Virus record (IMG/VR): IMGVR_UViG_3300010885_051426
Span: 1,613 to 65,612 of that record
Reading direction: 5' to 3' (one strand)
Origin: a virus
Lineage: Duplodnaviria; Caudoviricetes
Length of the DNA stretch: 64,000 nucleotides
Shown: piece after piece, positions 24,348 through 40,692 of the stretch
Layout: the number at the start of each line of letters is the position of its first letter
Position numbering within the stretch: the first letter of the stretch is position 1
Position numbers and translations under genes: made by a program
The notes under the pieces: generated by a model
The model's database searches: none
What the model saw: only the letters and a program-made list of their open reading frames with translations
Told to the model about the DNA's origin: nothing

Positions 24348-24437
24348 TTATTATACTCCTTGATTTAGTTAGTTATAATTTTCGCACATCACTGCTGATG
24401 AAATAATTATCTGCAGAAATTTATCAATTTCTATGTA

Positions 24438-24462: not shown

Positions 24463-25539
24463 CTAGGGTGTTTTTACTACTGTAATACTTTCCGTAACTA
24501 ATATTATATCAGTATTTTCTGGGCCAATATCTAAGGGGTTTAAACCACTACTTGTTATATTAGTGATATTGCCTGTAGTTGTTCTATTATTACCCGAATC
24601 ATCTCTTAGGAAGTTGGCATCATTGCTGGTATTCAACAATAAATCTGTGCCAGGGATAGCAGTCAATGGCGGTGTTGGTGGTGTAAAATTACCTGTATAA
24701 ACTGCAGTTCCTCTAACATAACGGAAGTTACTAATATTTCCATTAAGGCGGTCACCGTCATCATCTGTACCCAGTGCAAATTGTGTGGCGGTAAGTCCTG
24801 TTTTTGCAAATGTTCCAATACTAGAACCATTTAGATAAACAGTACAGGCTGAAGTGCCGTTTCTAACCAGGGCAATATGATTCCAAGTGTTTACTAATAC
24901 AGTACCTACACCTGTTGTTAATCCCCCCAGCAAGGTGGTGAAGGCACCCGTTAAAACATTAATACTGCCATATGATCCAGCTCCTTTAATACTAACATCT
25001 ATACCATCAGTACTATTGAATAATCCCAGGCGAGTACATAGCATACCTTGAGTGTATCCCACGGCTGCAGAAGTAACGTTGTGCCTAAACCACCATTCAT
25101 AGGTTATACTAGCTGTACCAGGCGCAGTAACCCCAGCTGTCGTCGCGCTGGAGCTTCCGTTAAAATTAATGCTACCTTGTGCACTAGCACCTCCAGCACG
25201 TTTGGCTCGTTTAACATAGTTAAATACTGTATGTTCCAGGGGTTTGTCTGTGCCAGTACCAGTCTGCAGCCTGGTTGGGCTGCCAACACCACCTATGGTA
25301 ACAGTATCAATGCGATCATCATAGCCATATCTGATGCTGGCCAGGTCTCCGGCTGAGCCCAGACTACGTATGTATCTGTAGCTGCCAGCAAATGCTCCCT
25401 GAGCTCGGTCAGCAACTTCACTGCCTAATTCAAATACTGCGCCCCAGAGCCGCAGATTGCTGGTGCCATTGCCCTGATACTGAATATCACCTGCAGAGTT
25501 TTGAAATCTTATGCTTAATGTTAAGCCGCTCTGTGCCAT
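24463..25539 (-). CDS. LamG/concanavalin-A-like virion protein; N-terminus continues the repeat domain of 29776..33123
   Basis: GSINFNG, TYEWWF, NTWNHIALVRNG...VYLNG, GNISNFRYVRGTAVYTGNFTPPTPPL. Confidence 0.75.
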   Translation of the reverse strand: MAQSGLTLSIRFQNSAGDIQYQGNGTSNLRLWGAVFELGSEVADRAQGAFAGSYRYIRSLGSAGDLASIRYGYDDRIDTVTIGGVGSPTRLQTGTGTDKPLEHTVFNYVKRAKRAGGASAQGSINFNGSSSATTAGVTAPGTASITYEWWFRHNVTSAAVGYTQGMLCTRLGLFNSTDGIDVSIKGAGSYGSINVLTGAFTTLLGGLTTGVGTVLVNTWNHIALVRNGTSACTVYLNGSSIGTFAKTGLTATQFALGTDDDGDRLNGNISNFRYVRGTAVYTGNFTPPTPPLTAIPGTDLLLNTSNDANFLRDDSGNNRTTTGNITNITSSGLNPLDIGPENTDIILVTESITVVKTP

Positions 25540-26108
25540 TATACTGTTGCTCCTGGTAAGTATGAATTGACCCAGGCAGAATCAGCCCACCATTCTGCAC
25601 TCAGAGTTGATGAATTAAATCGAATCTGTCCCTTGGGTGCCACTGCTGTGCCTCTGAGATCCCACATGTACATGGCACTGTTGTCATCAAAAGTATAACT
25701 GCCAGCTGTATAATCTCTGTAGTATACATGTGTATTAGATCCATCTATGCCATAGGACTTGAAGGTTTCATACAGTGTCCAGCCAGTGGTGCTGACAGCA
25801 GTCCAAGTAAGACTTCTTAACATGTAGACCCGGCAGTCATGACTGATTGTAAAAGTGCCGGCATCAGTGGTGTTGACATAACTGGTGCAGACCAGACCAG
25901 TTAAATATACTGGTAAATTGGCGTACGCAGACCATTTGGTCTGATTTGGGCTAACACCTATGTATAATTGCAGATTGTTGGCTGAAATACGCAACGGATT
26001 GGTAGTACCTGTGATGGTGACTGTTGGCGTAGTAGCACGCTGTGCAGTGGTTCCCACTGGCAATTTAAAATTCTGCGTGGCTGGCGTGGTATTTGTTAGA
26101 TTGGCCAT
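25539..26108 (-). CDS. small fibre/adhesin protein (adaptor motif plus insert)
   Basis: FKLPVGTTAQRA ... KGQIRFNSSTLSAEWWADSAW. Confidence 0.6.
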   Translation of the reverse strand: MANLTNTTPATQNFKLPVGTTAQRATTPTVTITGTTNPLRISANNLQLYIGVSPNQTKWSAYANLPVYLTGLVCTSYVNTTDAGTFTISHDCRVYMLRSLTWTAVSTTGWTLYETFKSYGIDGSNTHVYYRDYTAGSYTFDDNSAMYMWDLRGTAVAPKGQIRFNSSTLSAEWWADSAWVNSYLPGATV

Positions 26109-26114
26109 GTTGAT

Positions 26115-26849
26115 TTAATTGTACAGATATAACTGTACATGAGTTAGGTACATGGCTTCGTCAGCCTGTGCTTGATCGGCACCCAGATAGTGTCTGGCAC
26201 TGAATGAATCAGCCGTGTGTTCATATTGGCCAGAATCAAGGATATAATATCCATCTTGAGCTGAACCACTACCCCAGGGCAGATATGAATAACTTTTTTT
26301 ACCACTCCAGGTTGCACTGGCCCCGGCTTTGCTAAAACTCAGAGCAGGAGCAGCCGACAGTGACTTGGTCCAGGTAAAAAATCGATCATAGGTGCCGGCA
26401 GAATTTGTTAGATCCAGATAGTTGGTTTCGTTGTCTGGGCTGTCCACCATGTGCCAGAGTACTCGGTATCTGAGGCTGGTATGATAGGGTAAACTGGACC
26501 GGGTAAATATATATTCTGCAGGTCCGCTGGTCCAGCCATGTGCGGTACAGCGACCCAGCTCACCAAAGTTGTCCATGGTAAATGTAGTGGCATTGTTCCA
26601 GTACGTGGTGGTTGCTGTTGATCCTTCGTTGTAGTACAGACCGTGAGTGTTTTGACTCCTCAGAATATTGACCCAGGAAACCGCAGGCGCATTATAAAAA
26701 TATATGTATTGACCAGTTCCAACTGCGGCAACTGAGGTGTCATAGTAAATGCTGCCATTTACTGGAGAAAGCGGACGACCAGCTGTGCTTGTTGCTGGTA
26801 GTTGTATAAATCCACCATCAGTGATGCTTGTATTTTTTAAACTGGCCAT
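26115..26849 (-). CDS. fibre/adhesin protein (adaptor motif plus C-terminal domain)
   Basis: MASLKNTSITDGGFIQLPATSTAGRP.SPVNGSIYYDT. Confidence 0.6.
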   Translation of the reverse strand: MASLKNTSITDGGFIQLPATSTAGRPLSPVNGSIYYDTSVAAVGTGQYIYFYNAPAVSWVNILRSQNTHGLYYNEGSTATTTYWNNATTFTMDNFGELGRCTAHGWTSGPAEYIFTRSSLPYHTSLRYRVLWHMVDSPDNETNYLDLTNSAGTYDRFFTWTKSLSAAPALSFSKAGASATWSGKKSYSYLPWGSGSAQDGYYILDSGQYEHTADSFSARHYLGADQAQADEAMYLTHVQLYLYN

Positions 26850-26867
26850 GTTTGATGTTCCTGCTGT

Positions 26868-28637
26868 TTACCTGACATAGATTTCTACCCGTGCTGATCT
26901 GTTGATACCAGTGCTGTCCTGACAACAGTTAATTTGATCGCCAGCACTGTAATTACCAAAACCACTATCCATGCCTATGCCACCAGATACGTCATTGCTA
27001 CCAGCTGCACCGCTGCTTTCCATTGTGGTGTAGTTAACATAATCGCCTTCGCCGTTTTCGTTCCAGCCAAACCCCCAGCGCACATAGGCACGTGTGCCAT
27101 AATCTTGCATGTTTTTATAATTAAATCCATAGAAATTAATGGCATCCTGACTGGAAAATATACCCGATCCCCAGTTAGCCGAACTCTTGGCCAGGCCTTT
27201 GAAATACCCACCATAATTACTGCCTGTGCCAGGATTGCCAGTATTGTAATATCCTGCTGTGTTGAAAAAATTAACCAGTGTCATGGGCAGACCTTCATAA
27301 AAATTATTTTGTAACCAGCTCCAGCAATTATAGGGATTTGAACCCAGGCCGCCACCGTTGGTGCCTATGTCTGGCCACAATGCCATGATGTCTCGGGCAT
27401 TATAATAATTAAATACATTAAACTTGGCATCACCATCGTTGCGGTTGGCATTGCCAGTGTTCAGCGTGTTGATGGCAGTCCAATAGGCCGAGCTGTAATT
27501 AAAAGTAGTTCCTCTGGTGGCCTTCATGGCCAGCATCCAACCGCCACCATTGGCACTGGAATTCATTAGACAATACACCTGAGTAGCTCCCACTGTGGGT
27601 AAATTAATCCAGTATAAACCATCGGTATTTGTGCCTGTGGTTGCCTTGATGTATTCAGCCGAGGGTGCAGCTCTTTCTGCGGTCGAACCATCATAGACAT
27701 TTTTTATAGATTTCCATGCTGTTCCAGTAAAATATTCAGGAACATTGCTTGAGTTATTGTATCTGAACTGACCGGCTTTGGGTGATATCACTGGCAGAGT
27801 GTATGATAATATGACTATGCCATGTCCACCGCGCGCACCTGTTATGCTGTCAAAGGTTACTGGAGAGGGCATCTGACTGGCGCCGCCGCCGCCACCGCCG
27901 CCCAGTCCATCAGTGCCTTGCGTTGGAGCACGTGATGCAGGTAAAGCTCCATTGCCACCTCCACCACTGCCAGTACCTGCACTGCTGTCAGCACCACCAC
28001 CGCCACCGCCAGCATAGATTACTGAACTTCCAGTTATGGTGGATGACGATCCACCGCCACCGTTGCCTGAGGGTGAACCACCTACTGCACCTGCACCACC
28101 ACCGCCACCGCCTTGATATGGGCTGATAGGATTTCCAGCTCCGCCGTTGTTACCCTGTCCAACTGTGCCAGTTCCTGCGGTCCTTGGAACTGCTGGCCCA
28201 CCACCTCCGCCTGAAGCACCATTGCCACCCACTGACGCAGGACTTCGTCCGCCGCCCGCACCGCCACCCTGAGCAACAAAGGAAAAACCAGCCGTGGCTG
28301 AAAATTGTGAAAATCCACCTGAGTTGTCTGGTGCACCACCGGCTCCAACTACAACAGTATATTGAGTTCCTGCAGTGACCGCAACTGTACCAGTTAAAAA
28401 TCCACCACCACCGCCGCCGCCACCGTTGTTGGTACTGGCTGCTCCGCTACCACCACCGCCTCCGCCACCCACCACCAGATATGTTACCGAAGTAACTCCA
28501 GTGGGGCAGATCCAGTAAGTGGTGCCCAGACTGCTAAAACTATCAATGCCAGTGCCACCAGGGCGCGATCCAGATCCACCCAGGGGCAAGGTTAAAAACC
28601 CAGTGTCGTCGACAGTAAAATCTTGTACATTAGCCAT
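26868..28637 (-). CDS. glycine-rich adhesin with fibrinogen-like C-terminal domain
   Basis: YLVVGGGGGGG...GGHGIVILSY Gly-rich domain; DGLYWINLP...QVYCLM...GGGWML fibrinogen-like N-motif. Confidence 0.7.
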   Translation of the reverse strand: MANVQDFTVDDTGFLTLPLGGSGSRPGGTGIDSFSSLGTTYWICPTGVTSVTYLVVGGGGGGGSGAASTNNGGGGGGGGFLTGTVAVTAGTQYTVVVGAGGAPDNSGGFSQFSATAGFSFVAQGGGAGGGRSPASVGGNGASGGGGGPAVPRTAGTGTVGQGNNGGAGNPISPYQGGGGGGAGAVGGSPSGNGGGGSSSTITGSSVIYAGGGGGGADSSAGTGSGGGGNGALPASRAPTQGTDGLGGGGGGGASQMPSPVTFDSITGARGGHGIVILSYTLPVISPKAGQFRYNNSSNVPEYFTGTAWKSIKNVYDGSTAERAAPSAEYIKATTGTNTDGLYWINLPTVGATQVYCLMNSSANGGGWMLAMKATRGTTFNYSSAYWTAINTLNTGNANRNDGDAKFNVFNYYNARDIMALWPDIGTNGGGLGSNPYNCWSWLQNNFYEGLPMTLVNFFNTAGYYNTGNPGTGSNYGGYFKGLAKSSANWGSGIFSSQDAINFYGFNYKNMQDYGTRAYVRWGFGWNENGEGDYVNYTTMESSGAAGSNDVSGGIGMDSGFGNYSAGDQINCCQDSTGINRSARVEIYVR

Positions 28638-29626
28638 TATTTATTTTTTAAAGCATCTATTTCGGATTTTAAAGATTTAACAGCCTCGATCAGATACGCA
28701 GTAAGTTTGGTATACTGTATGCCAGCAGTATGACCATGTTCATCCAGGCTGACTATGTTGGGTAAAATTTTATTAACTTCCTGGGCAATTAATCCAGCTT
28801 CATTTTTTCTGCTGCCATCGCGTCGATCATAGGTCACACCAGTGAGCTGCAGTATGGAATTCAGAGCATCAGTTATGGGCAGAATGTTTTCTTTGTATTC
28901 TGCTGCAGATAATTCAGTTATGGTTCCACCCACAAATAAACTACCAGCTATACCTGCACCACCATTGCAGACAATGGCTCCGCTGGTGACTGAAGTTGAA
29001 CTTGTTGTTGCTATCACTGTCAATGAACTCAGCACCACATTGTTGTTCACACTGATGATGCCAGCATTAATTACTATGCTGGTGTTGTTGGGGCGCGATA
29101 TACCTGCAGATGTAGTATTGGCAGTACTAATGGTGGCCTGACCAATGCTGATTACACCACTGGTGACCAATATGCTGGTGCCGTCTGGTCTGAGTATGCC
29201 AGCCAATGAGCTAGATCCTACGCTGATGTTGGCACTGATCACTCCAGATGTAACTAATATGCTGGTTCCATCAGGTCTTAGTATACCTGCAGTTGAGCTA
29301 GATCCAAGTCTGGCAGCAATGACACCAGACGTAACTAATATGCTGGTGCCATCAGGGCGTACCACACCTATGACCACAGTAGTAGCAGTATTTACATAGG
29401 TGCTGATGTTGGAACTTAGGGTATTTAGATTGGAACTTAATGTACTCAGAGCCGAACTAACAGCTGTTACTGAGGTTTCTGTAGCCAAGGCCACCCCGCC
29501 CTGCAGTATACCGTCCATGACCACCAAGGTGACCTTGCTGGTATCTACAAAAAGCTCACCAGCTGCACCAGTTATACCAGATACCTGGGCTGTGGTTCCT
29601 CTGCGATGTTGTACTATTTTTGGCAT
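28637..29626 (-). CDS. tail fibre with Mtd-N-like head and C-terminal intramolecular chaperone (peptidase S74-like)
   Basis: VQHRRGTTAQ...GAAGELFVDT...VVMDG...GG; C-terminus LSAAEYKENI...GLIAQEV...YTKLTAYLIEAVK. Confidence 0.8.
   Translation of the reverse strand: MPKIVQHRRGTTAQVSGITGAAGELFVDTSKVTLVVMDGILQGGVALATETSVTAVSSALSTLSSNLNTLSSNISTYVNTATTVVIGVVRPDGTSILVTSGVIAARLGSSSTAGILRPDGTSILVTSGVISANISVGSSSLAGILRPDGTSILVTSGVISIGQATISTANTTSAGISRPNNTSIVINAGIISVNNNVVLSSLTVIATTSSTSVTSGAIVCNGGAGIAGSLFVGGTITELSAAEYKENILPITDALNSILQLTGVTYDRRDGSRKNEAGLIAQEVNKILPNIVSLDEHGHTAGIQYTKLTAYLIEAVKSLKSEIDALKNK
29050..29362 (-). repeat. tandem fibre-shaft repeats
   Basis: RPDGTSILVTSGVI three times plus a degenerate RPNNTSIVINAGII. 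Confidence 0.85.
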
Positions 29627-29652
29627 TTTATTTTATTCCTAGAATTCTATAA

Positions 29653-29660
29653 TATTTATA
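29653..29660 (-). promoter_or_regulatory. late promoter for the fibre cassette
   Basis: TATAAATA upstream of the ATG at 29626. Confidence 0.75.
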
Positions 29661-29679
29661 TGTTGTAGTTATCATAAAG

Positions 29680-29763
29680 TTAAATAATTGTAAAGGTTCC
29701 ATCACCTGTGATGCCTGCGACCTGGGCAGTGGTTCCTCTGCGATGTTGTACTATTTTTGGCAT
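29680..29763 (-). pseudogene. 27-aa truncated duplicate of the Mtd-N fibre gene start
   Basis: MPKIVQHRRGTTAQVAGITGDGTFTII*; leader near-identical and first 11 codons identical to 29594-29642. Confidence 0.8.
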
Positions 29764-29775
29764 TTTATTTCATTC

Positions 29776-32700
29776 CTAATTATACTCATCTGCACCACTG
29801 AGAATCTGATAGTCTTCGTTGCTATCTAATAGTTCAAAATCCTGAACCAGACCAGATATAAAATTGTCCTGCGCCTGCAATGGGGTTTCTTTAAACACCC
29901 GATTAAACTCAACCAACCGAATAACATTAGTACTGGTGGTAAACACCACAGCAGCATCTGTAAAATCCTGACTGCTAAAGGTCTGAGTAATTCTCGCAGC
30001 TGGTCCAACTATTCTGCACAGATACACCTGATTGCTGCTGTCTATGGTCTGTATGTTACTGTAAAATATATTTGTGCTGCTGCTGACAACACTGACTGAG
30101 CTCAGATTAAAGTCTGCAAACTGGTTATTGTTGACCTGCATTCTGAATTTATATACACCACCCACAGGGCTGGCATACACACTATAACCAAACACATTTT
30201 TGGTTACATCGTCGTCATAAATTATGGTCTGCACCAGATGTTCACCAAACAGGGGCTGTTCATATACATCACAGACCACATTGCTGGTATAGTCTGGCAG
30301 ATTGCTCAGGGGTGTCATTTCATACCAGCGATTGATGTAATAGGTATTGGGCCTTGGAACATCAAACAGCTCCATGAGTTGGCTGGCATCATCATAGGTG
30401 CTTCTATAAGGCAGGTTACCCGAGGTTAATAACAGACTTCGGAATGATATGGTGCGAACCTTGGTCCAGCTGGGTCGGCGGAAGTCTTCACTGTTGGTTA
30501 TGTAATTGGTTCTGGTCCAGCGTTCGGCTACTGTAGGGTCAGCATTGTAGCCTCGTTTACCTGTCTTGATCATGTAACGTTTTACATTTTCTAGATTATC
30601 GGTTGTACCATTATCGCCAGTCTGGCGACCCATAAACACAAAGTCACTGCCTGTACCTGCAGCCACTGTTGTACCACTAAATTGTATTTGCTGATCTAGT
30701 TTTGCAGTAAACACCTGAATTCGATTTTTTATAAATTCATCTGAGGCCTGTAAAACGTCTAATTTTTGCTGACCAATTAAGAAATCAACGCGTTCGTTTT
30801 CGTCATTATGTAGTCTGGTAGGCCAGATGCTGCGTTGACGGTGTAATGAACCTGTGAACACACGGTCTGTGTCCTGTGGCATGATGTTGAACCCATACTT
30901 ACTGGCCTGTCCACCCACAGTTTTTATATAGGTTAGACTGTTTTTTTCCTGTTCAACCTGATCACCAGTTTCTAATTGCGCACCCCAGGCATAGAATGCA
31001 CCAGTTCCAGAGCCTAGATAAACTTCTGCCAGACTAGAATTCTGCAGTGCAGATATGCGTACAATTTTTTGTCGTGTACTGGGCAATAGGCTCCAGCGTC
31101 TAAGACTTCGTGGATTGTCAGGAGCATTTAACAGCACATCCAGTACAAACATTTCTTCTGGGTTGTCTGTTTCATAGGGCGATAGTCTGGCTGTTAAAGA
31201 ACACAATAACCAACCATCAGTGCTGGCTCGACCTATCTGGGCACTGTCAGCATTGGTGCCTACTACAACACCAGTTTGCAGATCAAAAACAGCATAATAT
31301 TCGTCTGTAACATCGATGCGAACAAACCGTCTGTTTGCTGGTTTTAAATGTATGGCAAAGGCAAATTTTTCCAGATCTGGTAGATCTGCTTCCACAATGG
31401 CTTCTATATAATGTCGACCTACTGTGGTGTCTTCTATAATTAAATCAGCTGCACTTACAGCCTGAGTCTGACTGGTTAATTTGGCTTCTCTGAACCAAGA
31501 GGCTCGACCGGCCGGATTTCTGTACTGGTATCCTTCAAAAATTTCCATGAGGTTGGCAGCTTCATAGGTTGGATCATATACAGTTGTACTGGGGTTGGCA
31601 TAAACCAGATCAGGGAAAGGATAGCTATCACTTTCTACGTCGGTGTTGAATTTTTCCCAATAGTTAGCACCAAATTGTTCACTAAAATAAATTAAATTAG
31701 TTCTCAACAATGGAACGTTGCGATAGGCACCTGAGCCTACACCAATGCCCAGATCTGAACGTAAAGCATCGGGTTCTGTTACAGCATGTGCAAATCCCTG
31801 TACAGGTACTCGAAAAAAGGTGGCTGTTCTGGCCAGGTATTCAGACACTTGTGCAGTGTCTGTTGGTCGTTTAATAAAATAAAAACGATCAACACCCAGC
31901 GTTTTTCTATTGTCAGCACCAACTGTATCAGATACCAGTAATCCCCGAGTAAAGGCTCTTAGAGTCAGGTCTGCAAGTGTAACTGTATCTGCAAAATTAG
32001 TTGGTCTAAATATTTGAAATAATTCTGGTGTATTAACAGCATCAACCAGTAATTTATTTAAATAATAATTCTCAGCACTGCCCATGCTAACAGATAAATT
32101 TGGTGCTTTATTAAACCATAGTATCTCATTATCAGGTGGTGTAATAAAGTCTGTGTTGGCTGTTTTACCCTGATAAAATGTTATTCGATCAAATTGTTCA
32201 AAGGCATCGTCCAGATCTTTGATGGCATTATACAACAACTGATCGCCCAGATCCAGGTTGTCTATCATGCTGGCCGTATCAGCCAGAGATTTCAGTACTG
32301 TAAATAGTAGTTTTTCAAACCCAGCTTCAAATCTATCAGTAACTGCTTTGTTTAAACGCGTGGTTGTGGTGTCTGCATTGACCAATGCATCAGTGAATGG
32401 TTTGGTGGTCCTGAGCTGATCAACTTCGGTTACCACCACTGGTGGGTCTGTTAGTTGTTTTGATGCAAGTTTTGCAATCCTGTCAATATTAGTAGTAGAA
32501 TCTCTTAGTAATTTTGTGCTTAAAAAGCTAATATTTTCCGCAGCATTGTTGCTGACTCTGCCAGGTATGTTTGAACCTATGGTTAAAAATTCACGTATGC
32601 CCTTGTTCAGTGTATAGGTGCTGCCATCTATGAGCGTAAAGTTGTCTATCATGCCAACGTTATCAGCAAATACTCTGAAGGCGCTGAATCTACGGCTCAG

Positions 32701-33123
32701 GCTATCAGCCAAGGTAACTGTATCTTCTGGTTTTCTAGCCAGAATTCTATCCAGTCTTATGGACTCAATGATTGATATCAGATCCTGTTTGATACCAGGT
32801 ACTTGTAATAAGAATGGTCGTTCAGCTATGCTGACAGTATCGTTTACAGCTCTGAGAACCGCAGTTACAAATGATACAATGCTGACATCGGTCAGTGTTA
32901 CTGAGTCGGCAAATCCGCGTCTTGAAATTAAACGCAGTACAATGTCATCCAGACTGCTGTAGGAATCCCTGAGGCCTTTGAGTTGTATTACACTAGGACT
33001 ATCAGAAATAACAACACGTTCCAGTAAGAACCTGTTGTTGGGGATACCAAACGGATCATAAAGAATATGATCTACGAGTTTGGATATGGTTACTCGAACT
33101 TTGGGGATGCGTAAATAACTCAT
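29776..33123 (-). CDS. large repeat-rich virion fibre/spike protein (1115 aa), probably the N-terminal part of a split gene
   Basis: ~20-aa D-x-V-x-x-x-D/E repeats; two RTN(L/Y)I..SE.F...W.K beta-sandwich domains, the second incomplete. Confidence 0.65.
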   Translation of the reverse strand: MSYLRIPKVRVTISKLVDHILYDPFGIPNNRFLLERVVISDSPSVIQLKGLRDSYSSLDDIVLRLISRRGFADSVTLTDVSIVSFVTAVLRAVNDTVSIAERPFLLQVPGIKQDLISIIESIRLDRILARKPEDTVTLADSLSRRFSAFRVFADNVGMIDNFTLIDGSTYTLNKGIREFLTIGSNIPGRVSNNAAENISFLSTKLLRDSTTNIDRIAKLASKQLTDPPVVVTEVDQLRTTKPFTDALVNADTTTTRLNKAVTDRFEAGFEKLLFTVLKSLADTASMIDNLDLGDQLLYNAIKDLDDAFEQFDRITFYQGKTANTDFITPPDNEILWFNKAPNLSVSMGSAENYYLNKLLVDAVNTPELFQIFRPTNFADTVTLADLTLRAFTRGLLVSDTVGADNRKTLGVDRFYFIKRPTDTAQVSEYLARTATFFRVPVQGFAHAVTEPDALRSDLGIGVGSGAYRNVPLLRTNLIYFSEQFGANYWEKFNTDVESDSYPFPDLVYANPSTTVYDPTYEAANLMEIFEGYQYRNPAGRASWFREAKLTSQTQAVSAADLIIEDTTVGRHYIEAIVEADLPDLEKFAFAIHLKPANRRFVRIDVTDEYYAVFDLQTGVVVGTNADSAQIGRASTDGWLLCSLTARLSPYETDNPEEMFVLDVLLNAPDNPRSLRRWSLLPSTRQKIVRISALQNSSLAEVYLGSGTGAFYAWGAQLETGDQVEQEKNSLTYIKTVGGQASKYGFNIMPQDTDRVFTGSLHRQRSIWPTRLHNDENERVDFLIGQQKLDVLQASDEFIKNRIQVFTAKLDQQIQFSGTTVAAGTGSDFVFMGRQTGDNGTTDNLENVKRYMIKTGKRGYNADPTVAERWTRTNYITNSEDFRRPSWTKVRTISFRSLLLTSGNLPYRSTYDDASQLMELFDVPRPNTYYINRWYEMTPLSNLPDYTSNVVCDVYEQPLFGEHLVQTIIYDDDVTKNVFGYSVYASPVGGVYKFRMQVNNNQFADFNLSSVSVVSSSTNIFYSNIQTIDSSNQVYLCRIVGPAARITQTFSSQDFTDAAVVFTTSTNVIRLVEFNRVFKETPLQAQDNFISGLVQDFELLDSNEDYQILSGADEYN

Positions 33124-33468: not shown

Positions 33469-33692
33469 TACTTATCCAGCAGTTGTTGAAGGAGTTGTCT
33501 GATATCTACAAGAAGGTTCTCATGGTTATTTATACGTTCCTCTAACTGTGATATTTTCTGTTGATGCTGTATACGCGATTGTTTTTGTTCAGTATACTTG
33601 CTAAATGCCTCTGTATCAACATCAACGATGGCATTAGAAATGCAGTCGCGAACCAGGTTGGGATGATCCGCGACTTTTATTCTGTTATGCAT
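33468..33692 (-). CDS. conserved small coiled-coil protein
   Basis: IKVADHPNLVRD..SNAIV followed by a coiled coil; usual neighbour of the VrlC-like gene. Confidence 0.6.
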   Translation of the reverse strand: MHNRIKVADHPNLVRDCISNAIVDVDTEAFSKYTEQKQSRIQHQQKISQLEERINNHENLLVDIRQLLQQLLDK

Positions 33693-36600
33693 GTGCTACA
33701 ACTCTCAGTGTTTTAAACTGAGGAATTCTAGCACCATTGCTGCTGCGCATTACTATTTTAATTTGGAATGCTGTAAACGGTGTTAAATCTACAGGATTTT
33801 CTGTGCTGTCAAGATCGCTGATATTAAATTCAATATCAGTGTACCTGCCCCGTACATCAGATTTAACTATGCTTACATAACTGCTGGTTGCCCCTATGGT
33901 TGTTTGTCGAGGAGCCACAAATTTTTCCCAGACCAGTTTGTTAAAGTCTGTGCTAACGCTACCTGTTTTATAATAAACGTCAAAGTCTGCTGCACTAGGA
34001 ATACAACTCTCAGCAATGATTCTAAGTGCTGTAGCTGGATTTTCTAAATTAATTTTACGTATAATGTATTTACTTTCACCAGATGCATTAATGGTGGTGG
34101 TTTCTTCAGTATAATCATCATACTGGTAAATGGTTATGCCTGGTCCAGAAACCGCTGAGGTTAAAACTGCACTGACATAAACTGTCTGTGCATCTTCACT
34201 AACCCTGGTTACTAAAACCGGTGAACTAGTAAATGTATTAGTACTTTCTGTGCTACCCCTGATGTTTAAATAACGACCTGGAACAACGGCTTCAAAGCCA
34301 CGAATGTCTGTGGTGGTAATAGCCTGTTGATTTCCATCAAAAGCTATGGTTGTACTACTATTGGCAACAGTGGTCATTAAAATAATATTGCTGGTACTGC
34401 CTATGGCTGGTAATGGAACTGGTAATCTGCGGGTTACTGCAGGATTATCAATTCTATGTGTCATAAGATCCAGATACAGAGTAGACAGGTCTATGACCGG
34501 ACTAACGTGATCTGTAGTTGTGCTTAGATTAATAACACCAATAAAGCTGTCAGACCAGTTATTGTTTACACCACCGCTGGTTATGCTCAGAGGATTTACA
34601 CGATCATATTCATTGGTTGCGGTTAAAATTACACAACTGGTGTCTAAAATATTATTGGTGTTGAATTCTAAACTCTTGGTTAAATGTGTATATGGAGTAA
34701 TTGGATCTGCTCCATCATAGGTAAAACTGCGTAATATTTTACCAGTAATGCCCATGTTGGTGGGTTGGAATGACATTATTCTAGCACTAGGTTTAACAAT
34801 ATGATACAACACATTGGCATGACCAATTACGTCTTCACCACCAGATATCAGAGCAGTAACTCCTGTAACAGCAGTTGCACCTAGATTAGCCACACTGCTT
34901 ACTGTAACTTCAAAGGTGTCCATGGTTACACGGCTGGCAGTTAGTTTAAGGTCAATGTCCAGACTTTGGAATTCTGTAAGTGTAGAGCTGATATATTTAC
35001 CAAAAAGTTCACCAACCGGAATATTGGCAATACGAGCATCGTTGTTCAGAGCATATTGACCAGCCCAGTATTTACTAAACAATTTAGTAGTATCACCTGA
35101 ACTAAATCCATGATTTGGTTGTGTAACACGAACTTTGTTACTGCCATGTATGAATGTCAGTGGATTAATTGGTAACTGTTCGGTATCAATGTCTTTGTTG
35201 ACAACATGAACCTGAGCTGGATTTGTGCTGAATACTGCTCGATTGATGTTGAATTTCATGTCACTGAACTGATCTTCAGTCCATAAAGTACCATCCTGAG
35301 ATTTAAAGAAACTACCCAGAGTTGCCTGTGTTGTATAACTGCTGGTAGGAGTATTTACGTCATTCTGTCCCAGTGTGGCAATCCAGATCTTATAGTTCTT
35401 GCTGTCGGTTTTTAATACCACAGCATAATTTTTCTCTGGCATTAAATATACAGGAGTTTTAAATGTAAATTTAGTTGGCGTTTGTGCACGAGTTGCATCT
35501 ACATTTACCTGTTCAGGATACTTAAGTACATCAGAACCTGGAACAATTTCTGTTCCACTGGGTCTGCCTGTGCTGTCGCATGTACGAATTTCTAACTGTA
35601 CAGGCGCCTGTTCGAATACAGGTTTTTGCGCAAAGAAAACATCAACGTCTGTGATAAACGCACCATTTTCAAATTGGCTAGGCAACTTGAAGCTCTGTGC
35701 TACAGGATCATAGGGTCTGGCAGTAAATGTCTTGGTGCTTAGATAATTGGTTGTAACTGTTACTGTGAATCCTTCAACTGTGTATAGGGCATCAGCCTTG
35801 CTGGTCCAATTATCTGGATGATTTTCTGGATCATCGGTCATGACCACGGGTTTCTTACCTGTGATGAATTTCAGGGTGTCGGTGTCTGGTAAATCTAGCA
35901 GACCTACTACTACACCCTTGGCATCTGAATACAGGTTACCATTGGCATCACTGGTGCAGACCTGAGCGGCTGTATAAACTGCTCGTACAAATTTAGGTTC
36001 TTTCTGATCCACGCTTAGGTAGAATGTACCAGCACTATAATCATAGTTGGTTACACTACGAAGGAATTTATCGCTTAATTTTCCGCGACCATTGACTATG
36101 TACAGTGTATTACCATCCTGATATACAGCAACACCAGTACCAACAATGCGATTAACACCGCCAGTTCTTTCGTAGTACCAGACACTGCTGCCCGACGACA
36201 AGGCTGTTCTAAATGCATCGCGATTGGCTGCACTTGGTATGTTTAAATCATTGTCGCGAGGATTTAATGATCTGCGTATCCAACCATTTTCGTCTACCCA
36301 TTGATTGCCTACATTGACTCGAACAGTTCCACGTACATCCACTGTTTCATATGAGCTTCTGTAACGAGGTAATTCATCCTTGAGTGTTCCATTGACTCTG
36401 TTTTGTGTAAATTCTAAAACTGGTAATGAGTCAAAAGTAAATTTAACTGCACCAGTAATGTAATTATCAATTGGTGTGTCATCGAAGAATGTAAAAAATT
36501 TGCCCCGTGGTTTCATGCCTTCGGCAATTAATAATATGCTCTGAGCTCGACAAAATGGAATTAATTCTGTGGTTGAGTTTTGACTCTGCAGGGTCACAGT

Positions 36601-39600
36601 TTCACTCACGTCCAGCTGATATGGTCGCCAGTCTCTGGTTGCTCTATATGCGGCCACGGCCTGTTCAGCTGATGTACCTACTGTTTGTGTTACAATTTTA
36701 TTTTCAATTACATTTTGATAAATGTCCTGATCAGGTATAACTCGCAATTTGCCCAAGAATGTTGCTGTTAGGAATGGTGCCACTGCAATACTAGTTGTAG
36801 CCAGTACCTGTTTGAGTACATTGCTGGTTGTGTAGTATACTGTTAATAAATCGCCAGAAATTTTATAATTGTCTGTGAATCGACCCAGGCGTACTGGATC
36901 TAATTCTGTTGCTGTTGTATTGGCAACTGTATAGTTTAATTTTTCCACCAATGGGAAACTATAGTAATCAACATTGGGATTCATGGTTTGATTTTGGAAA
37001 TCAATGCTGTAACGAGCATCGCCACCATTTTCACCATTGTTGGCATCGGCAAAATTATCAACAAAGAATCCGGTCTTGTAACGTTCTAAAGTGCTGTCCA
37101 GGTTGTCTCGAATTTGCAAACTCTTGGTGGCAGTCTCTAATAGATTTAATGCAGATACTTCTTCAAGTTGCTGAACTCTGCGATTAATACGACCTATGTC
37201 TCGCATGGTATAGCGTTTATTATCATAATTTTTAATTAATACATCAGGATATTCTGATGTTTTAGTATAGGGTTTTAACTCAATATCATATAAATTAATG
37301 CTGTTGTTGTTCTGAGCAACCTTTGGAAATTCTGGTGCCTCTTCACTGACACCACTGACGTTGTAAAATTCTGAGTTTCGATCCAGATAGATTTTTTCTT
37401 TACGACCCAGATAAAAACTAATATCTGCTGTATAATTAGTACCAAAACGAGGAGGTGCTAAACTATCTAAATTACCAGAAGCAACATTAATTTTACTTCT
37501 AAAATCTAAAACATCACCAAGATTGTAGTTATTGTAAACTGGAATGGTTTCGTAAGGAACAACTAATTCATCATAGCTGCTACGAGCAAAAAAGTCACCA
37601 GAACCATGATCAAAATAATCATAAAATACCTTAATACTGCCCGTGGGTGTTGGGAATCCTGGTTGTAAAATAGCCCTACCAACATCATAATAGATGTCTC
37701 GTTGACCATTGTCCAGATAATATCGAGCTGATACATCAGTTGCGTTTGCCTGTGTGGCTGCACTCCAGCTGGCAACAAAACTGCTGGCCATGTAAATTTT
37801 AACAATGCGATAAACATCGCTGCGGGTAAAATTCAGGGTGGCTTTGATGGCTGCACTAGAACTCAGGTATTCATCACTGGCAGAAAATGTCAGTGTTTTG
37901 CTTCGTACATGACCCAGACTGTTGGCACTGTCTGCGCTTCTTTGTACTGGGAAATTAACACGAGCACTGTTGCTGCTAAATGTACTGTTGATGCTTAGAA
38001 TAACTGTTGTACCGCTCAATGTAACATTATTAACTGTTATTGGCGGACTAAGTGAAGCCGCAGTATCTTGTGCAACATAAAAAGCATTGACATCAGTTGT
38101 GGCTAAACTTTCAACTGCAGCATTTAACGAAGGATTGGCAGCTGCTAAATTTACTGATATGCTGCTGCTACCACTGACACCGCTAACAGATTGTGTTTTG
38201 TATATGGTATATACGTTGTCCACGATATTCTGAGTTGCGTTTTTTACAGGGTATATTAATTGAGATGATTTAGTATCAACCAGATTATTGTTTAGTCTAA
38301 ATCCTGGATATATAGTTGAACCACCTAAACCAGTATTAGTAACATCGACATCCAAACACACACCATAGGCAACAGAATTGCTGCTGACCTTGGTTATGAA
38401 TATTCTATTGTTGTTAAGATTAATTAAATCATTGGTGCGAAGTTCAGTTAACATCCTGGCGTCATTTGTGCCTTGAATAATTAATCCACGATGTACGCCA
38501 GCACCAATGGCAAATTGTGCACTGAATGAACCAGTTAATTTACGAGCATTGATACCATACTGATAGCTGTCAAAAACATCACCAACAAAACTGGCAACTG
38601 GGCCTGTATAGTATATGCCTATGGCTGTGGAAGCTGTAATAGTTGATAATGCACTACTGACCAGTACACGTCGATCTCCATTGAAACCTAAAACTGTTCC
38701 TGTTGCACCTATGGTGGCATTTCCCAGATATAAACGATCACCAATACGTAATTCCGAAGTAAATAATGTAGTATTACCAGTTCCCAGACCTATAACTGTT
38801 TGTGCAGGCACTCTTACCAGAACCGCTGTACTGGCTGCCCCAGCCAATGGTTTACCACTTAGATACATGACTGTGTTGCTGCTAATGCCAACAACTGTCC
38901 AGCTGCTGGTTGCGCTATGACCTGCAACACCCAGTGTTATAGTATCCCCAACTCTAAATTCATTGGTAAACGCAGTCAGTGTACCAGTTACACCCATGTA
39001 GGTGGAACCCTGTGAACTTGTGCCTATGGTTCCACTTAAGGTTAAAAATGCACTGGTTGAGTTACCAGCATATCGAACCAAACCAGATAAACTATAACTG
39101 GTGGTTGCTGTACTGGTTGTAGAGTCTGCAACCAACACACAATTGGCATCCTGATCAAAACTGCGATTAGGTTCCATGACAATGTCGCTCAGACCCAGAC
39201 GAATACTACCACGTGCATCGGGCTCAGCCCAGTTTATGCGAGCAACACCAACCTGTTGACCATGACCAAATTTTTGTGTTTCGGCAGTTCTATAACCAAC
39301 TGTACGATCGAATAAAAGCACCTTGCTGCCCTGGCTTAGATTTGGTGTACCCCAGCTATAACGTTTGTCCACATAGATATAGTTGCCCTGTGGAGTCTGT
39401 ATGTTAGCATTGTTCTGACTGCGTATATCTCTGGCTTTGCTAATGGTAACATTGCTGTTAATGGATTTTTGAATTTCATAACCACCAACATAGGCTTTGC
39501 CCAGACCAAAAGTAGCTGTTAAATTACTAGAACTTCCGTTTAAAATATATCCGCCATTGTTGCGGGGATTACCAATGTAGCGCCATTTTGTGCTGCCATC

Positions 39601-40692
39601 GGTAATTACTACGCTTTCATCACTGGTGCTAACGTCAAAATTTGATGGTTCTGTACTGGCTGAACTACCAGACTGTATACAGGTAAAATATTTGCCACCG
39701 GTGCTTTTTACATAGTCACCGACTTTAAAGGCCCCCTGGGACCAATTACCACGATTGTTGGTACGATTTTCTCTGATATCAAAAATAAAGTTATCAACAA
39801 CGTAGTTTCCACTTTCGTCAAAGGTTCTGCGTGCTAAAGTTTCTTCAAGTATATTATACTGACTGGCATTGATAATGCTCTGTAGTACACCTTCTTCAAC
39901 TCGTAATAATTCAAAAAATTGTTCTGGATCTTCATCCAGGCCGCACTGAAAAAATACTACATCAATTTTAAATCTATGTGCTCCGGGTGCAGCATAGTTT
40001 GGACTGCCAGCAGCATTGTCTAATAAACTACTATCTTCATCTGAGGTAACCACGGATTCAGTATATTTAATACCAACTCGAACATTAATATCAGTAAGAG
40101 TATCAGCATATTTTTTAACACTGATAACCTGGCTGCTAACTGAAACAAAATGATCTGCCAGATAATAAACACCATTCTGTATGCCAGCTGCAACGCTTCG
40201 ACCAGATATGTCAGAACCTGCAGCCACAGTTAATGTTTTGGTGTTGTCTTCTACAACATACAGGGTTGAGCTGGCAGCAAAAGTAGATCCTGTATTTGTG
40301 CCGTCTTCATTACCGGCTGTGTATAACAGTACCAATGTAATAGGATCAGTTGTTGTAGCTGCTATGGCATTGACAATTAATGCTGTGATACCAGTACCAT
40401 CAGAAAACTGACTGATGGTTTTATCTTGCAAATAACTTAAACTTTCGGTTCCTAAACTAGTACCACTAATTTTAAGATATTTTAATTTGTCATTATAGTT
40501 AACCTGTCCAGGTATAACCATGCTGCCTTCACGGAAAATGTGATCACCTAATTTTGTAATCTGATTTTGAAGTATGCCCTGTAGTTGATTTACTTCTCTG
40601 GTCTGTACAGCTACGCCAGGACGAAATAAAACTTTGTAGAACTTTTTTTGTTCATCAAAATCGTCAAAGTACGGTGTTTGGTTAAAATTCAT
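33685..40692 (-). CDS. VrlC-like giant virion/baseplate protein (2335 aa)
   Basis: PYFDDFD..KKFYKVLFRPG.AVQ.RE..QLQ, APGAHR, LARRTFDESGNYVV, KTGFFVDNF, DPVAQSF, GSFFKSQDG..W, FQIKIVM. Confidence 0.8.
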   Translation of the reverse strand: MNFNQTPYFDDFDEQKKFYKVLFRPGVAVQTREVNQLQGILQNQITKLGDHIFREGSMVIPGQVNYNDKLKYLKISGTSLGTESLSYLQDKTISQFSDGTGITALIVNAIAATTTDPITLVLLYTAGNEDGTNTGSTFAASSTLYVVEDNTKTLTVAAGSDISGRSVAAGIQNGVYYLADHFVSVSSQVISVKKYADTLTDINVRVGIKYTESVVTSDEDSSLLDNAAGSPNYAAPGAHRFKIDVVFFQCGLDEDPEQFFELLRVEEGVLQSIINASQYNILEETLARRTFDESGNYVVDNFIFDIRENRTNNRGNWSQGAFKVGDYVKSTGGKYFTCIQSGSSASTEPSNFDVSTSDESVVITDGSTKWRYIGNPRNNGGYILNGSSSNLTATFGLGKAYVGGYEIQKSINSNVTISKARDIRSQNNANIQTPQGNYIYVDKRYSWGTPNLSQGSKVLLFDRTVGYRTAETQKFGHGQQVGVARINWAEPDARGSIRLGLSDIVMEPNRSFDQDANCVLVADSTTSTATTSYSLSGLVRYAGNSTSAFLTLSGTIGTSSQGSTYMGVTGTLTAFTNEFRVGDTITLGVAGHSATSSWTVVGISSNTVMYLSGKPLAGAASTAVLVRVPAQTVIGLGTGNTTLFTSELRIGDRLYLGNATIGATGTVLGFNGDRRVLVSSALSTITASTAIGIYYTGPVASFVGDVFDSYQYGINARKLTGSFSAQFAIGAGVHRGLIIQGTNDARMLTELRTNDLINLNNNRIFITKVSSNSVAYGVCLDVDVTNTGLGGSTIYPGFRLNNNLVDTKSSQLIYPVKNATQNIVDNVYTIYKTQSVSGVSGSSSISVNLAAANPSLNAAVESLATTDVNAFYVAQDTAASLSPPITVNNVTLSGTTVILSINSTFSSNSARVNFPVQRSADSANSLGHVRSKTLTFSASDEYLSSSAAIKATLNFTRSDVYRIVKIYMASSFVASWSAATQANATDVSARYYLDNGQRDIYYDVGRAILQPGFPTPTGSIKVFYDYFDHGSGDFFARSSYDELVVPYETIPVYNNYNLGDVLDFRSKINVASGNLDSLAPPRFGTNYTADISFYLGRKEKIYLDRNSEFYNVSGVSEEAPEFPKVAQNNNSINLYDIELKPYTKTSEYPDVLIKNYDNKRYTMRDIGRINRRVQQLEEVSALNLLETATKSLQIRDNLDSTLERYKTGFFVDNFADANNGENGGDARYSIDFQNQTMNPNVDYYSFPLVEKLNYTVANTTATELDPVRLGRFTDNYKISGDLLTVYYTTSNVLKQVLATTSIAVAPFLTATFLGKLRVIPDQDIYQNVIENKIVTQTVGTSAEQAVAAYRATRDWRPYQLDVSETVTLQSQNSTTELIPFCRAQSILLIAEGMKPRGKFFTFFDDTPIDNYITGAVKFTFDSLPVLEFTQNRVNGTLKDELPRYRSSYETVDVRGTVRVNVGNQWVDENGWIRRSLNPRDNDLNIPSAANRDAFRTALSSGSSVWYYERTGGVNRIVGTGVAVYQDGNTLYIVNGRGKLSDKFLRSVTNYDYSAGTFYLSVDQKEPKFVRAVYTAAQVCTSDANGNLYSDAKGVVVGLLDLPDTDTLKFITGKKPVVMTDDPENHPDNWTSKADALYTVEGFTVTVTTNYLSTKTFTARPYDPVAQSFKLPSQFENGAFITDVDVFFAQKPVFEQAPVQLEIRTCDSTGRPSGTEIVPGSDVLKYPEQVNVDATRAQTPTKFTFKTPVYLMPEKNYAVVLKTDSKNYKIWIATLGQNDVNTPTSSYTTQATLGSFFKSQDGTLWTEDQFSDMKFNINRAVFSTNPAQVHVVNKDIDTEQLPINPLTFIHGSNKVRVTQPNHGFSSGDTTKLFSKYWAGQYALNNDARIANIPVGELFGKYISSTLTEFQSLDIDLKLTASRVTMDTFEVTVSSVANLGATAVTGVTALISGGEDVIGHANVLYHIVKPSARIMSFQPTNMGITGKILRSFTYDGADPITPYTHLTKSLEFNTNNILDTSCVILTATNEYDRVNPLSITSGGVNNNWSDSFIGVINLSTTTDHVSPVIDLSTLYLDLMTHRIDNPAVTRRLPVPLPAIGSTSNIILMTTVANSSTTIAFDGNQQAITTTDIRGFEAVVPGRYLNIRGSTESTNTFTSSPVLVTRVSEDAQTVYVSAVLTSAVSGPGITIYQYDDYTEETTTINASGESKYIIRKINLENPATALRIIAESCIPSAADFDVYYKTGSVSTDFNKLVWEKFVAPRQTTIGATSSYVSIVKSDVRGRYTDIEFNISDLDSTENPVDLTPFTAFQIKIVMRSSNGARIPQFKTLRVVAHA

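Follow-up and report, generated by a model that had tools for sequence, protein, structure and literature searches.

A 64-kb stretch of viral DNA ("the window" below; positions 1,613 to 65,612 of IMG/VR record IMGVR_UViG_3300010885_051426) raises the question of whether a single beta-sandwich domain can be encoded in two pieces, with other genes in between. The record is linear, 65.6 kb long, and estimated to be 36% complete. On the minus strand, where all the genes and parts of genes described here are found, an open reading frame (ORF) of 1115 amino acids (29776-33123) ends in what appears to be an unfinished domain, and another of 358 amino acids (24463-25539) begins with what appears to be the remainder; four intact ORFs, of 329, 589, 244, and 189 amino acids, lie between them. 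A first-pass annotation, made from the sequence alone, had proposed a naturally split protein whose halves complete one another in trans, and this core idea passed each check that was run. The reading developed here, which we hold to be fairly likely, is that of a conserved split domain, completed in trans, that anchors accessory proteins around a variable slot for fiber genes: the 1115-amino-acid tail protein and the 358-amino-acid protein probably snap together as socket and plug. Their physical binding, their pairing as partners, and their location in the virion we infer from the arguments below.

The 1115-amino-acid protein contains two copies of the domain, as had been annotated. An N-strand motif (TNL..SE.F..W) and the core strands are present in both, and copy 2 is homologous to copy 1 by BLAST (E 5e-5) and by profile-profile alignment (hhalign, residues 870-1017 against 473-625, probability 97.6%, E 2.8e-12); to judge from these alignments, it is a true paralogue. 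The two differ in how they end. Copy 1 consists of an N-terminal part (residues 470-649, 31177-31716; hidden Markov model (HMM) jr1N, E 6e-105), followed in the same chain by its final strands and a linker (residues 688-858, 30550-31062), for which AlphaFold2 predicts strands at 687-693 and 710-719 with predicted local distance difference test (pLDDT) scores of 55-74. Copy 2, the "socket" (residues 868-1040, 30004-30522), has the N-terminal part and no detectable final strands: the last three, which in copy 1 come shortly after the core, do not follow in its chain. Their counterparts stand instead at the start of the 358-amino-acid ORF, in a "plug" module (residues 1-118, 25186-25539) of which residues 1-45 correspond to the three missing strands and the whole to the strands plus linker of copy 1. 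A plug profile (A2) made from the first 120 residues of this protein and two relatives aligns plug residues 7-65 with residues 687-741, at the end of copy 1 (E 4.7e-7), whereas against copy 2 it finds nothing (best E 0.38, over 9 columns); by BLAST, the N-terminus of the 358-amino-acid protein likewise matches the end of copy 1 (E 6e-4 and 2e-4). The missing strands are thus where the annotation had placed them.

What follows the socket is an acidic tail of 75 amino acids with an EDYQ-type motif (residues 1041-1115, 29779-30003), lying outside the sandwich. It is conserved in homologues (HMM jr2tail, E 2e-25 to 4e-41), but it also terminates proteins that have no socket, namely P0039 and the 430-amino-acid protein of relative L007, and so is a separate C-terminal module rather than the missing strands in another form.

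Structure modeling agrees with this division. AlphaFold2 models of the 1115-amino-acid protein alone were poor, with mean pLDDT 39.8 for residues 460-1115 (18 alignment rows) and 42.5 for residues 861-1115 (20 rows); in both, only core strands exceeded 50, and the 75-residue tail was without strands and below 50. Co-folding of residues 861-1115 with plug residues 1-120, a check that had been suggested along with the annotation, gave one sheet and a score of 0.82 (runs 0.80, 0.89, and 0.82), against 0.00 for the best of three controls. Among solved complexes, 58 of 80 come up to the mark used, and among mismatched pairs 2 of 110, a calibration that is only rough since the present co-fold was run with alignments of our own. 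Between runs, at least 51% of contacts agree, and partner pLDDT is at least 58. The confident interface takes in scaffold residues 869-1047 and plug residues 3-64, leaving the tail outside, and its tightest pairs join plug residues 9-13 to 992-996 and 36-38 to 978-980. As modeled, these contacts place the plug strands within the copy 2 sheet, by insertion; what the co-fold shows is that the predicted parts are compatible with one domain, which is compatibility and not binding.

The arrangement might work as follows. The 1115-amino-acid protein would be a scaffold, its second beta-sandwich encoded without the last three strands and followed by the acidic tail; the 358-amino-acid protein would supply those strands and a linker, and would bear a lectin domain resembling concanavalin A. 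During assembly, the plug strands would insert into the open sheet of copy 2, completing the domain in trans and, by the same step, fastening the lectin-bearing protein to the scaffold.

How old the split is can be judged from relatives. A homologue search with the 1115-amino-acid protein returned 17 proteins among 7999 scored candidates; twelve full-length homologues were aligned, leaving aside P0004, P0012, and P0015 (cut at the N-terminus) and P0018 and P0019 (short). All twelve, at 43-88% identity, end within 5 residues of one position. Proteins beginning with a plug are also numerous (at least 24 cluster representatives; see below), and the split is therefore older than the cassette now found in it. 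It is old, conserved, and common to a protein family, and was not made by this cassette, contrary to what had been annotated.

The gene order around the break is likewise shared. In L003 and L005 (55-59% identity), a 1130-amino-acid protein is followed by a single fiber gene (189 amino acids), a plug-only protein of 148 amino acids, and a homologue of the 177-amino-acid gene that comes after the 358-amino-acid ORF in the window. In L007 and L010 (32% identity), a 2165-amino-acid protein with two copy-2-type domains is followed by fiber and glycine-rich genes, among which three plug-first ORFs (430, 758, and 137 amino acids) are interleaved; the 758-amino-acid ORF also has a socket, and the last of the three again precedes the 177-amino-acid homologue. 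The succession of socket protein, fiber gene or genes, plug protein, and 177-amino-acid gene is thus found in the window, in L003/L005, and in L007/L010, with sockets and plugs in matching numbers (1:1 in the window, 1:1 in L003, 3:3 in L007 and L010 together). The number of fiber genes in the interval differs among all three readable lineages, in keeping with the annotation's view of it as a site for fiber cassettes: the interval between socket and plug is where fiber genes are gained, lost, and swapped. A metagenome scan added one truncated locus, L008. L011-L014 were considered as further plug-first genes and rejected, the domains there being internal and ordinary.

The wider family was surveyed with an exhaustive search using profile A2, which found 507 proteins at E <= 1e-3, and by scanning HMMs of the separate parts over 169 collected proteins. 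In the latter, the plug hits that extend over 65 profile positions or more number 41, of which 24 start at or before residue 10. These 24 plug-first proteins, all cluster representatives, are 129 to 1731 amino acids long, have conserved N-termini, and include relatives with a single fiber gene in the gap; seven of them have a copy-2-type N-terminal part further on, mostly near the C-terminus. The other long hits number 17: in 11, what is matched is the copy 1 strands within the chain of members of the 1115-amino-acid family, and the rest are internal (P0025, P0030, P0043, P0049, P0051, P0074, and P0089). In the multi-domain fiber-like proteins P0030-P0169, 127 of 274 plug-HMM hits, a count that concerns the same ~40 plug residues, fall within 30 residues after a detected N-terminal part. 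The plug is therefore the ordinary end of this domain.

Relatives with both parts in one chain, which the annotation had proposed looking for, were found in two forms. In P0025 (2664 amino acids), only 5 residues separate a copy-2-type N-terminal part (residues 1557-1724, E 1e-33) from the full plug module that comes next (1730-1837, E 1e-20), and at this join the 75-residue tail is absent. P0027 (763 amino acids), which begins with a plug and ends with a socket, is colinear with P0025 from residue 1724 of the latter (44% identity over 1-294, 61% over 312-698), so that the same protein exists split and unsplit at this boundary. P0040 corresponds to P0025 residues 1738-2664 at 79% identity. The second form is that of P0018 (814 amino acids) and P0019 (830 amino acids), in which the first ~781-795 residues of the 1115-amino-acid type (67-70% identity) are joined to the C-terminal end of plug proteins, without copy 2, tail, fiber genes, or plug strands. 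P0019 runs parallel to the 1115-amino-acid protein as far as residue 781 (67% identity where compared), after which come the last ~45 residues of the plug-only proteins; it comes from a 40.6-kb contig, and so is unlikely to have been cut by a contig end. P0018 has the same join. Either these proteins are products of recombination between paralogous strand-plus-linker modules, or they retain an unexpanded ancestral form.

Several observations weigh against completion in trans, and they have to be set beside a competing explanation, which we think unlikely: that copy 2 is diverged and self-sufficient, its sheet closed by its own tail or by nothing, and that the plug is an independent partial paralogue docking elsewhere, whether on another baseplate protein encoded outside the fragment or on itself. 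The length of copy 2 from its RTN motif to its end is close to that of copy 1 from RTN to WGAQLE, and a greedy profile alignment can overlay the two, laying the 75-residue tail over copy 1's last strands, if without confidence. The poor AlphaFold2 monomers cannot show the tail to be unstructured or copy 2 to be open. The final strands nevertheless give no sequence signal in copy 2 (E 0.38), and the tail occurs on proteins without a socket. L007 and P0025 each have an internal, non-terminal copy-2-type domain with no plug after it, which may be stable without these strands or have strands of its own diverged beyond detection; in P0025, on the other hand, the plug also directly continues a copy-2-type N-terminal part, with no tail between. 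P0040 starts at an internal methionine of the plug and may be a fragment. The case for binding comes from one co-fold, and all of the evidence is computational. A model that knows intact beta-sandwich folds tends to pair the two pieces of a divided one, so that the score could reflect memory of the whole; it stood at 0.82 against 0.00 for the best of three controls. Finally, the equal numbers of sockets and plugs (1:1, 1:1, 3:3) speak against the competing explanation, although they come from only three lineages, whose records are fragments (36%, 29%, and 8% complete), and could change.

A recent disruption, in which insertion of this 4.2-kb cassette would have cut an intact gene and the 1115-amino-acid ORF would be a truncated remnant and the 358-amino-acid ORF a fortuitously expressed 3' piece, would fit the presence of a 76-nt duplicated leader across the stop codon of the former, and the proteins of the window and P0003 are in fact 3-5 residues shorter than the other 10 full-length homologues. 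It is very improbable all the same, and largely refuted: the C-terminus falls within 5 residues in 12 of 12 homologues at 43-88% identity, plug-first proteins with conserved N-termini number at least 24 among cluster representatives, relatives with one fiber gene in the gap share the break, and a fresh truncation would have no conserved 75-residue tail. That the halves are joined after transcription or translation, by RNA splicing, protein trans-splicing, or ribosome bypass, or that the break is an assembly artefact, is hardly credible. Nothing was found in its favor. The gap holds four intact genes, both halves have start and stop codons of their own, and the 358-amino-acid ORF has a ribosome-binding site as well. 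No intein (Hint) halves were found at the break by family search: the 1115-amino-acid ORF has no Pfam family, and Laminin_G_3, in the 358-amino-acid ORF, is the sole family in the two proteins. As for an artefact, contigs from two other runs bridge the junctions, and the same layout was independently assembled in L003, L005, and L007.

A split domain completed by another protein has parallels. In chaperone-usher pili, which work by donor-strand complementation and exchange, each unfinished beta-sandwich receives its missing strand from the N-terminal extension of the subunit that follows; the pilins have an immunoglobulin-like fold lacking one strand, and need a periplasmic chaperone. The socket and plug described here would resemble these in that a sandwich is completed in trans and a protein with both plug and socket could form chains. 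They differ in that three strands and a linker are missing and that the setting is a virion rather than a pilus; family searches, which covered parts of the window and were not aimed at a chaperone or usher, showed neither. The likeness to donor-strand completion would be one of mechanism, not membership.

A closer case is that of the Pseudomonas podophage A1002, whose nozzle is split between nozzle-base gp42 and nozzle-rope gp39; as described (PLoS Biol 2026, PMC13730344), cryo-electron microscopy showed the missing strands of a split tail protein to be supplied by a second protein. The two systems share a division into two ORFs, one with domains short of beta-strands and the other filling the missing portions; A1002 fiber subunits dock by sheet augmentation as well. 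The A1002 nozzle is made of a beta-propeller and platform, whereas the domain in question here is a beta-sandwich, encoded by a T4-like myophage and assigned to the periphery of its baseplate, and the A1002 split was seen by cryo-electron microscopy, whereas the present one is known from models only. The present split is further set apart by a recurrent family of plug-first and socket-ending proteins, with one-chain variants and with fiber genes in the gap. As in A1002, the pieces of a single domain are distributed over two ORFs, both of them intact, and there are relatives with the parts in one chain (P0025, P0018, and P0019). A split tail protein as such is therefore already known; new is the split as a recurrent family of plugs and sockets around a fiber slot. 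A literature search that did not extend to subscription journals or supplements turned up no account of the split domain itself, of proteins that begin with a plug, or of a break of this kind with fiber genes inside it.

One-chain versions of the domain are also found further afield. A profile of the 1115-amino-acid family (A1, 13 rows) matches Rcc01080, the head spike fiber chain of the Rhodobacter capsulatus gene transfer agent RcGTA (6tb9), at E 3.7e-9; the match is to copy 1 and spans the N-strand motif, core, and WGAQLE strands, and the plug profile meets the last strands of Rcc01080 (E 0.004). More weakly (E 0.0095), A1 matches the triplex subunit gp45 of Pseudomonas phage E217 (8env/8eon), which is described as the baseplate subunit to which the E217 fiber attaches. 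Unlike the proteins of the window, both have the whole domain in one chain. Of the RcGTA fiber, only residues 2-10 are reported as resolved in the maps (PMC7296036), and 6tb9 therefore gives no experimental fold for the domain.

The window itself comes from a T4-like freshwater myophage, of which it is a fragment. Metagenome runs from lakes and other fresh water contain words near-identical to it, and family searches place its structural genes, on the minus strand, in T4-type order. Baseplate hub and wedge subunits (40.7-52.6 kb) are followed by proteins of 2335 and 112 amino acids, the 1115-amino-acid ORF, the four intervening ORFs, the 358- and 177-amino-acid ORFs, and a 968-amino-acid virion protein, and then by neck, sheath-stabilizer, terminase, sheath, and portal genes. 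Given this order, the split locus occupies the slot of T4's peripheral baseplate and short-fiber genes; lying between gp6/7/8-like wedge genes and gp13/14/15-like neck genes, it corresponds to the gp9-gp12/wac slot in position only. Searches of a phage collection with the region (nucleotide) and the 1115-amino-acid protein gave no match, nor did an IMG/VR scan with the single protein; the 358-amino-acid protein matches phages of the collection through its lectin domain only.

It is possible, though on balance doubtful, that plug and socket serve this group of T4-like freshwater phages as a general grammar of assembly, in which an open-sandwich end accepts any plug-first protein. If so, proteins with both elements (7 of the 24 that begin with a plug) would build chains or branches, and L007/L010, where three sockets and three plugs are interleaved with fiber genes, would be an example of such an array. 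Arrays would grow or collapse when paralogous strand-plus-linker modules recombine, with P0018 and P0019 as collapsed and P0025 as fused forms, and whole receptor-binding modules could be exchanged as gene cassettes without the fold ever being broken. How exchangeable host-recognition modules are fastened to a conserved baseplate is central both to the evolution of host range and to phage engineering. If a domain is divided between genes, fiber genes occupy the gap, and strand insertion restores the fold, the result would be a coupling device both simple and portable. It would also explain why many metagenomic phage ORFs start in mid-domain, why large "truncated-looking" structural proteins are conserved, and why annotation by single-ORF domain models fails, as it does for the 1115-amino-acid protein (no Pfam or PHROG match).

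The genes within the gap are only partly recognizable. Four fiber genes and a mini-ORF had been annotated; four intact ORFs and a mini-ORF are indeed present, but by family search only the 329-amino-acid ORF (28637-29626) is a fiber gene, with Pfam Mtd_N (E 1.8e-9) and Peptidase_S74 (E 6.9e-12) domains and matches to 28 PHROG families, mostly annotated as tail or tail fiber proteins. The 589-amino-acid ORF (26868-28637) encodes a glycine-rich protein (Pfam Gly_rich_2, E 1.3e-21; phrog_2295 and phrog_1325), and the 244- and 189-amino-acid ORFs (25539-26849) have no Pfam family and one sub-threshold PHROG match. By eye, the 589-, 244-, and 189-amino-acid ORFs (25539-28637) have a common N-terminal motif, ..F..LP.G.T..RP, after Met-Ala, which points to an attachment module shared by the three, otherwise unrelated, proteins. 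Within the 589-amino-acid gene, the glycine-rich stretch (27600-28500) draws many unrelated metagenome contigs, in which numerous joints appear; these are artefacts of the repeats and do not represent variants of this phage.

The fiber gene next to the socket has left a trace of its own history. The annotation had noted that the TAG stop of the 1115-amino-acid ORF falls within a duplicated leader, and a direct repeat of 76 nt, 89% identical, was indeed found at 29566-29641 and 29703-29778; the duplicated stretch is the ribosome-binding region and first ~20 codons of the fiber gene. The upstream copy (29703-29778, minus strand) holds both this stop and the start of a 27-codon mini-ORF (29680-29763) that repeats the start of the fiber gene, and whose residues VAGITG are closer to the fiber allele of L003/L005 than to the resident fiber. 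A related contig (X3) is without 58 nt of this structure. The duplication looks like the recombination scar of a fiber swap, and scar and mini-ORF together indicate that the fiber adjoining the 1115-amino-acid gene has been replaced at least once. The few residues that the window and P0003 proteins lack are missing exactly where the duplicated leader begins: the swap came after the split, and trimmed only the last 3-5 residues of the 1115-amino-acid protein.

At every junction that could be read (five, in three lineages), a tail-bearing protein directly precedes an Mtd_N-type fiber gene (window 29779-30003; L003 8073-8123; L010 2999-3233, 8669-8698, and 12262-12276), the Mtd_N start being confirmed by Pfam for the window's fiber and judged by eye for the others. 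The 75-residue tail may thus be a docking site for the adjoining fiber. Mtd_N-type fibers come after other genes as well, and the association of tail and fiber is not exclusive.

Both junctions of the break are real, as contigs from two other runs, which say nothing of transcripts or depth, bear out. Contig X3 (3327 nt) aligns to 29373-29686 and 29745-32664 and so bridges the stop of the 1115-amino-acid ORF and the start of the fiber; X2 (424 nt) covers 25271-25694 and so bridges the junction of the 189- and 358-amino-acid ORFs. P0003, from yet another contig, ends with the same residues as the 1115-amino-acid protein. The 8-mer AGTATAAT, which had been reported at both junctions, was rejected as an insertion signature: the window contains 8 copies where 3.6 would be expected, a count reached by 2 of 100 shuffles and so near chance, and both junction copies lie inside coding sequence, and are therefore no junction signal. 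A third minus-strand copy of AGTATAAT (24350-24357) stands immediately before the start codon of the 177-amino-acid gene, so that three of the eight are at consecutive gene boundaries of the split locus, near-chance overall count notwithstanding.

The 358-amino-acid ORF has the start signals that had been annotated, an AGGAG at 25550-25554 and an overlapping, coupled TAATG. Its plug is followed by a lectin/glucanase domain of the concanavalin A type (residues 128-273, 24721-25158; Pfam Laminin_G_3, PF13385), at E 4.7e-9 and 37 bits against a gathering cutoff of 27.6; by tblastn, this domain matches structural proteins of cyanophages and other phages. The protein was said to end in a repeat of the sandwich family, but the only match there was of 9 residues at E 15, and the HMM of the N-terminal region gave no hit at E <= 1e-3. 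It ends instead in a conserved peptide, ...ITVVKTP (24466-24525), an ending that it has in common with the single-ORF relative P0018 (...DNITVVKTP; BLAST E 0.001).

At the other end of the locus, the N-terminal region of the 1115-amino-acid protein (residues 1-460, 31744-33123) is conserved in the 12 homologues, and by its HMM, parts of it recur within longer relatives. It carries a repeated MIDN..LGD motif, underlain by a 27-nt direct repeat (32257-32283 and 32641-32667). In the fuller form MIDN(F/L)xL(I/G)D...Y, the motif is found twice in this region, recurs repeatedly in L007, P0025, and P0027, which are longer relatives, and could represent repeated docking sites. Directly upstream of the locus is the 2335-amino-acid ORF (33685-40692), which is conserved in L003 and L007 and is among the largest genes of the fragment.

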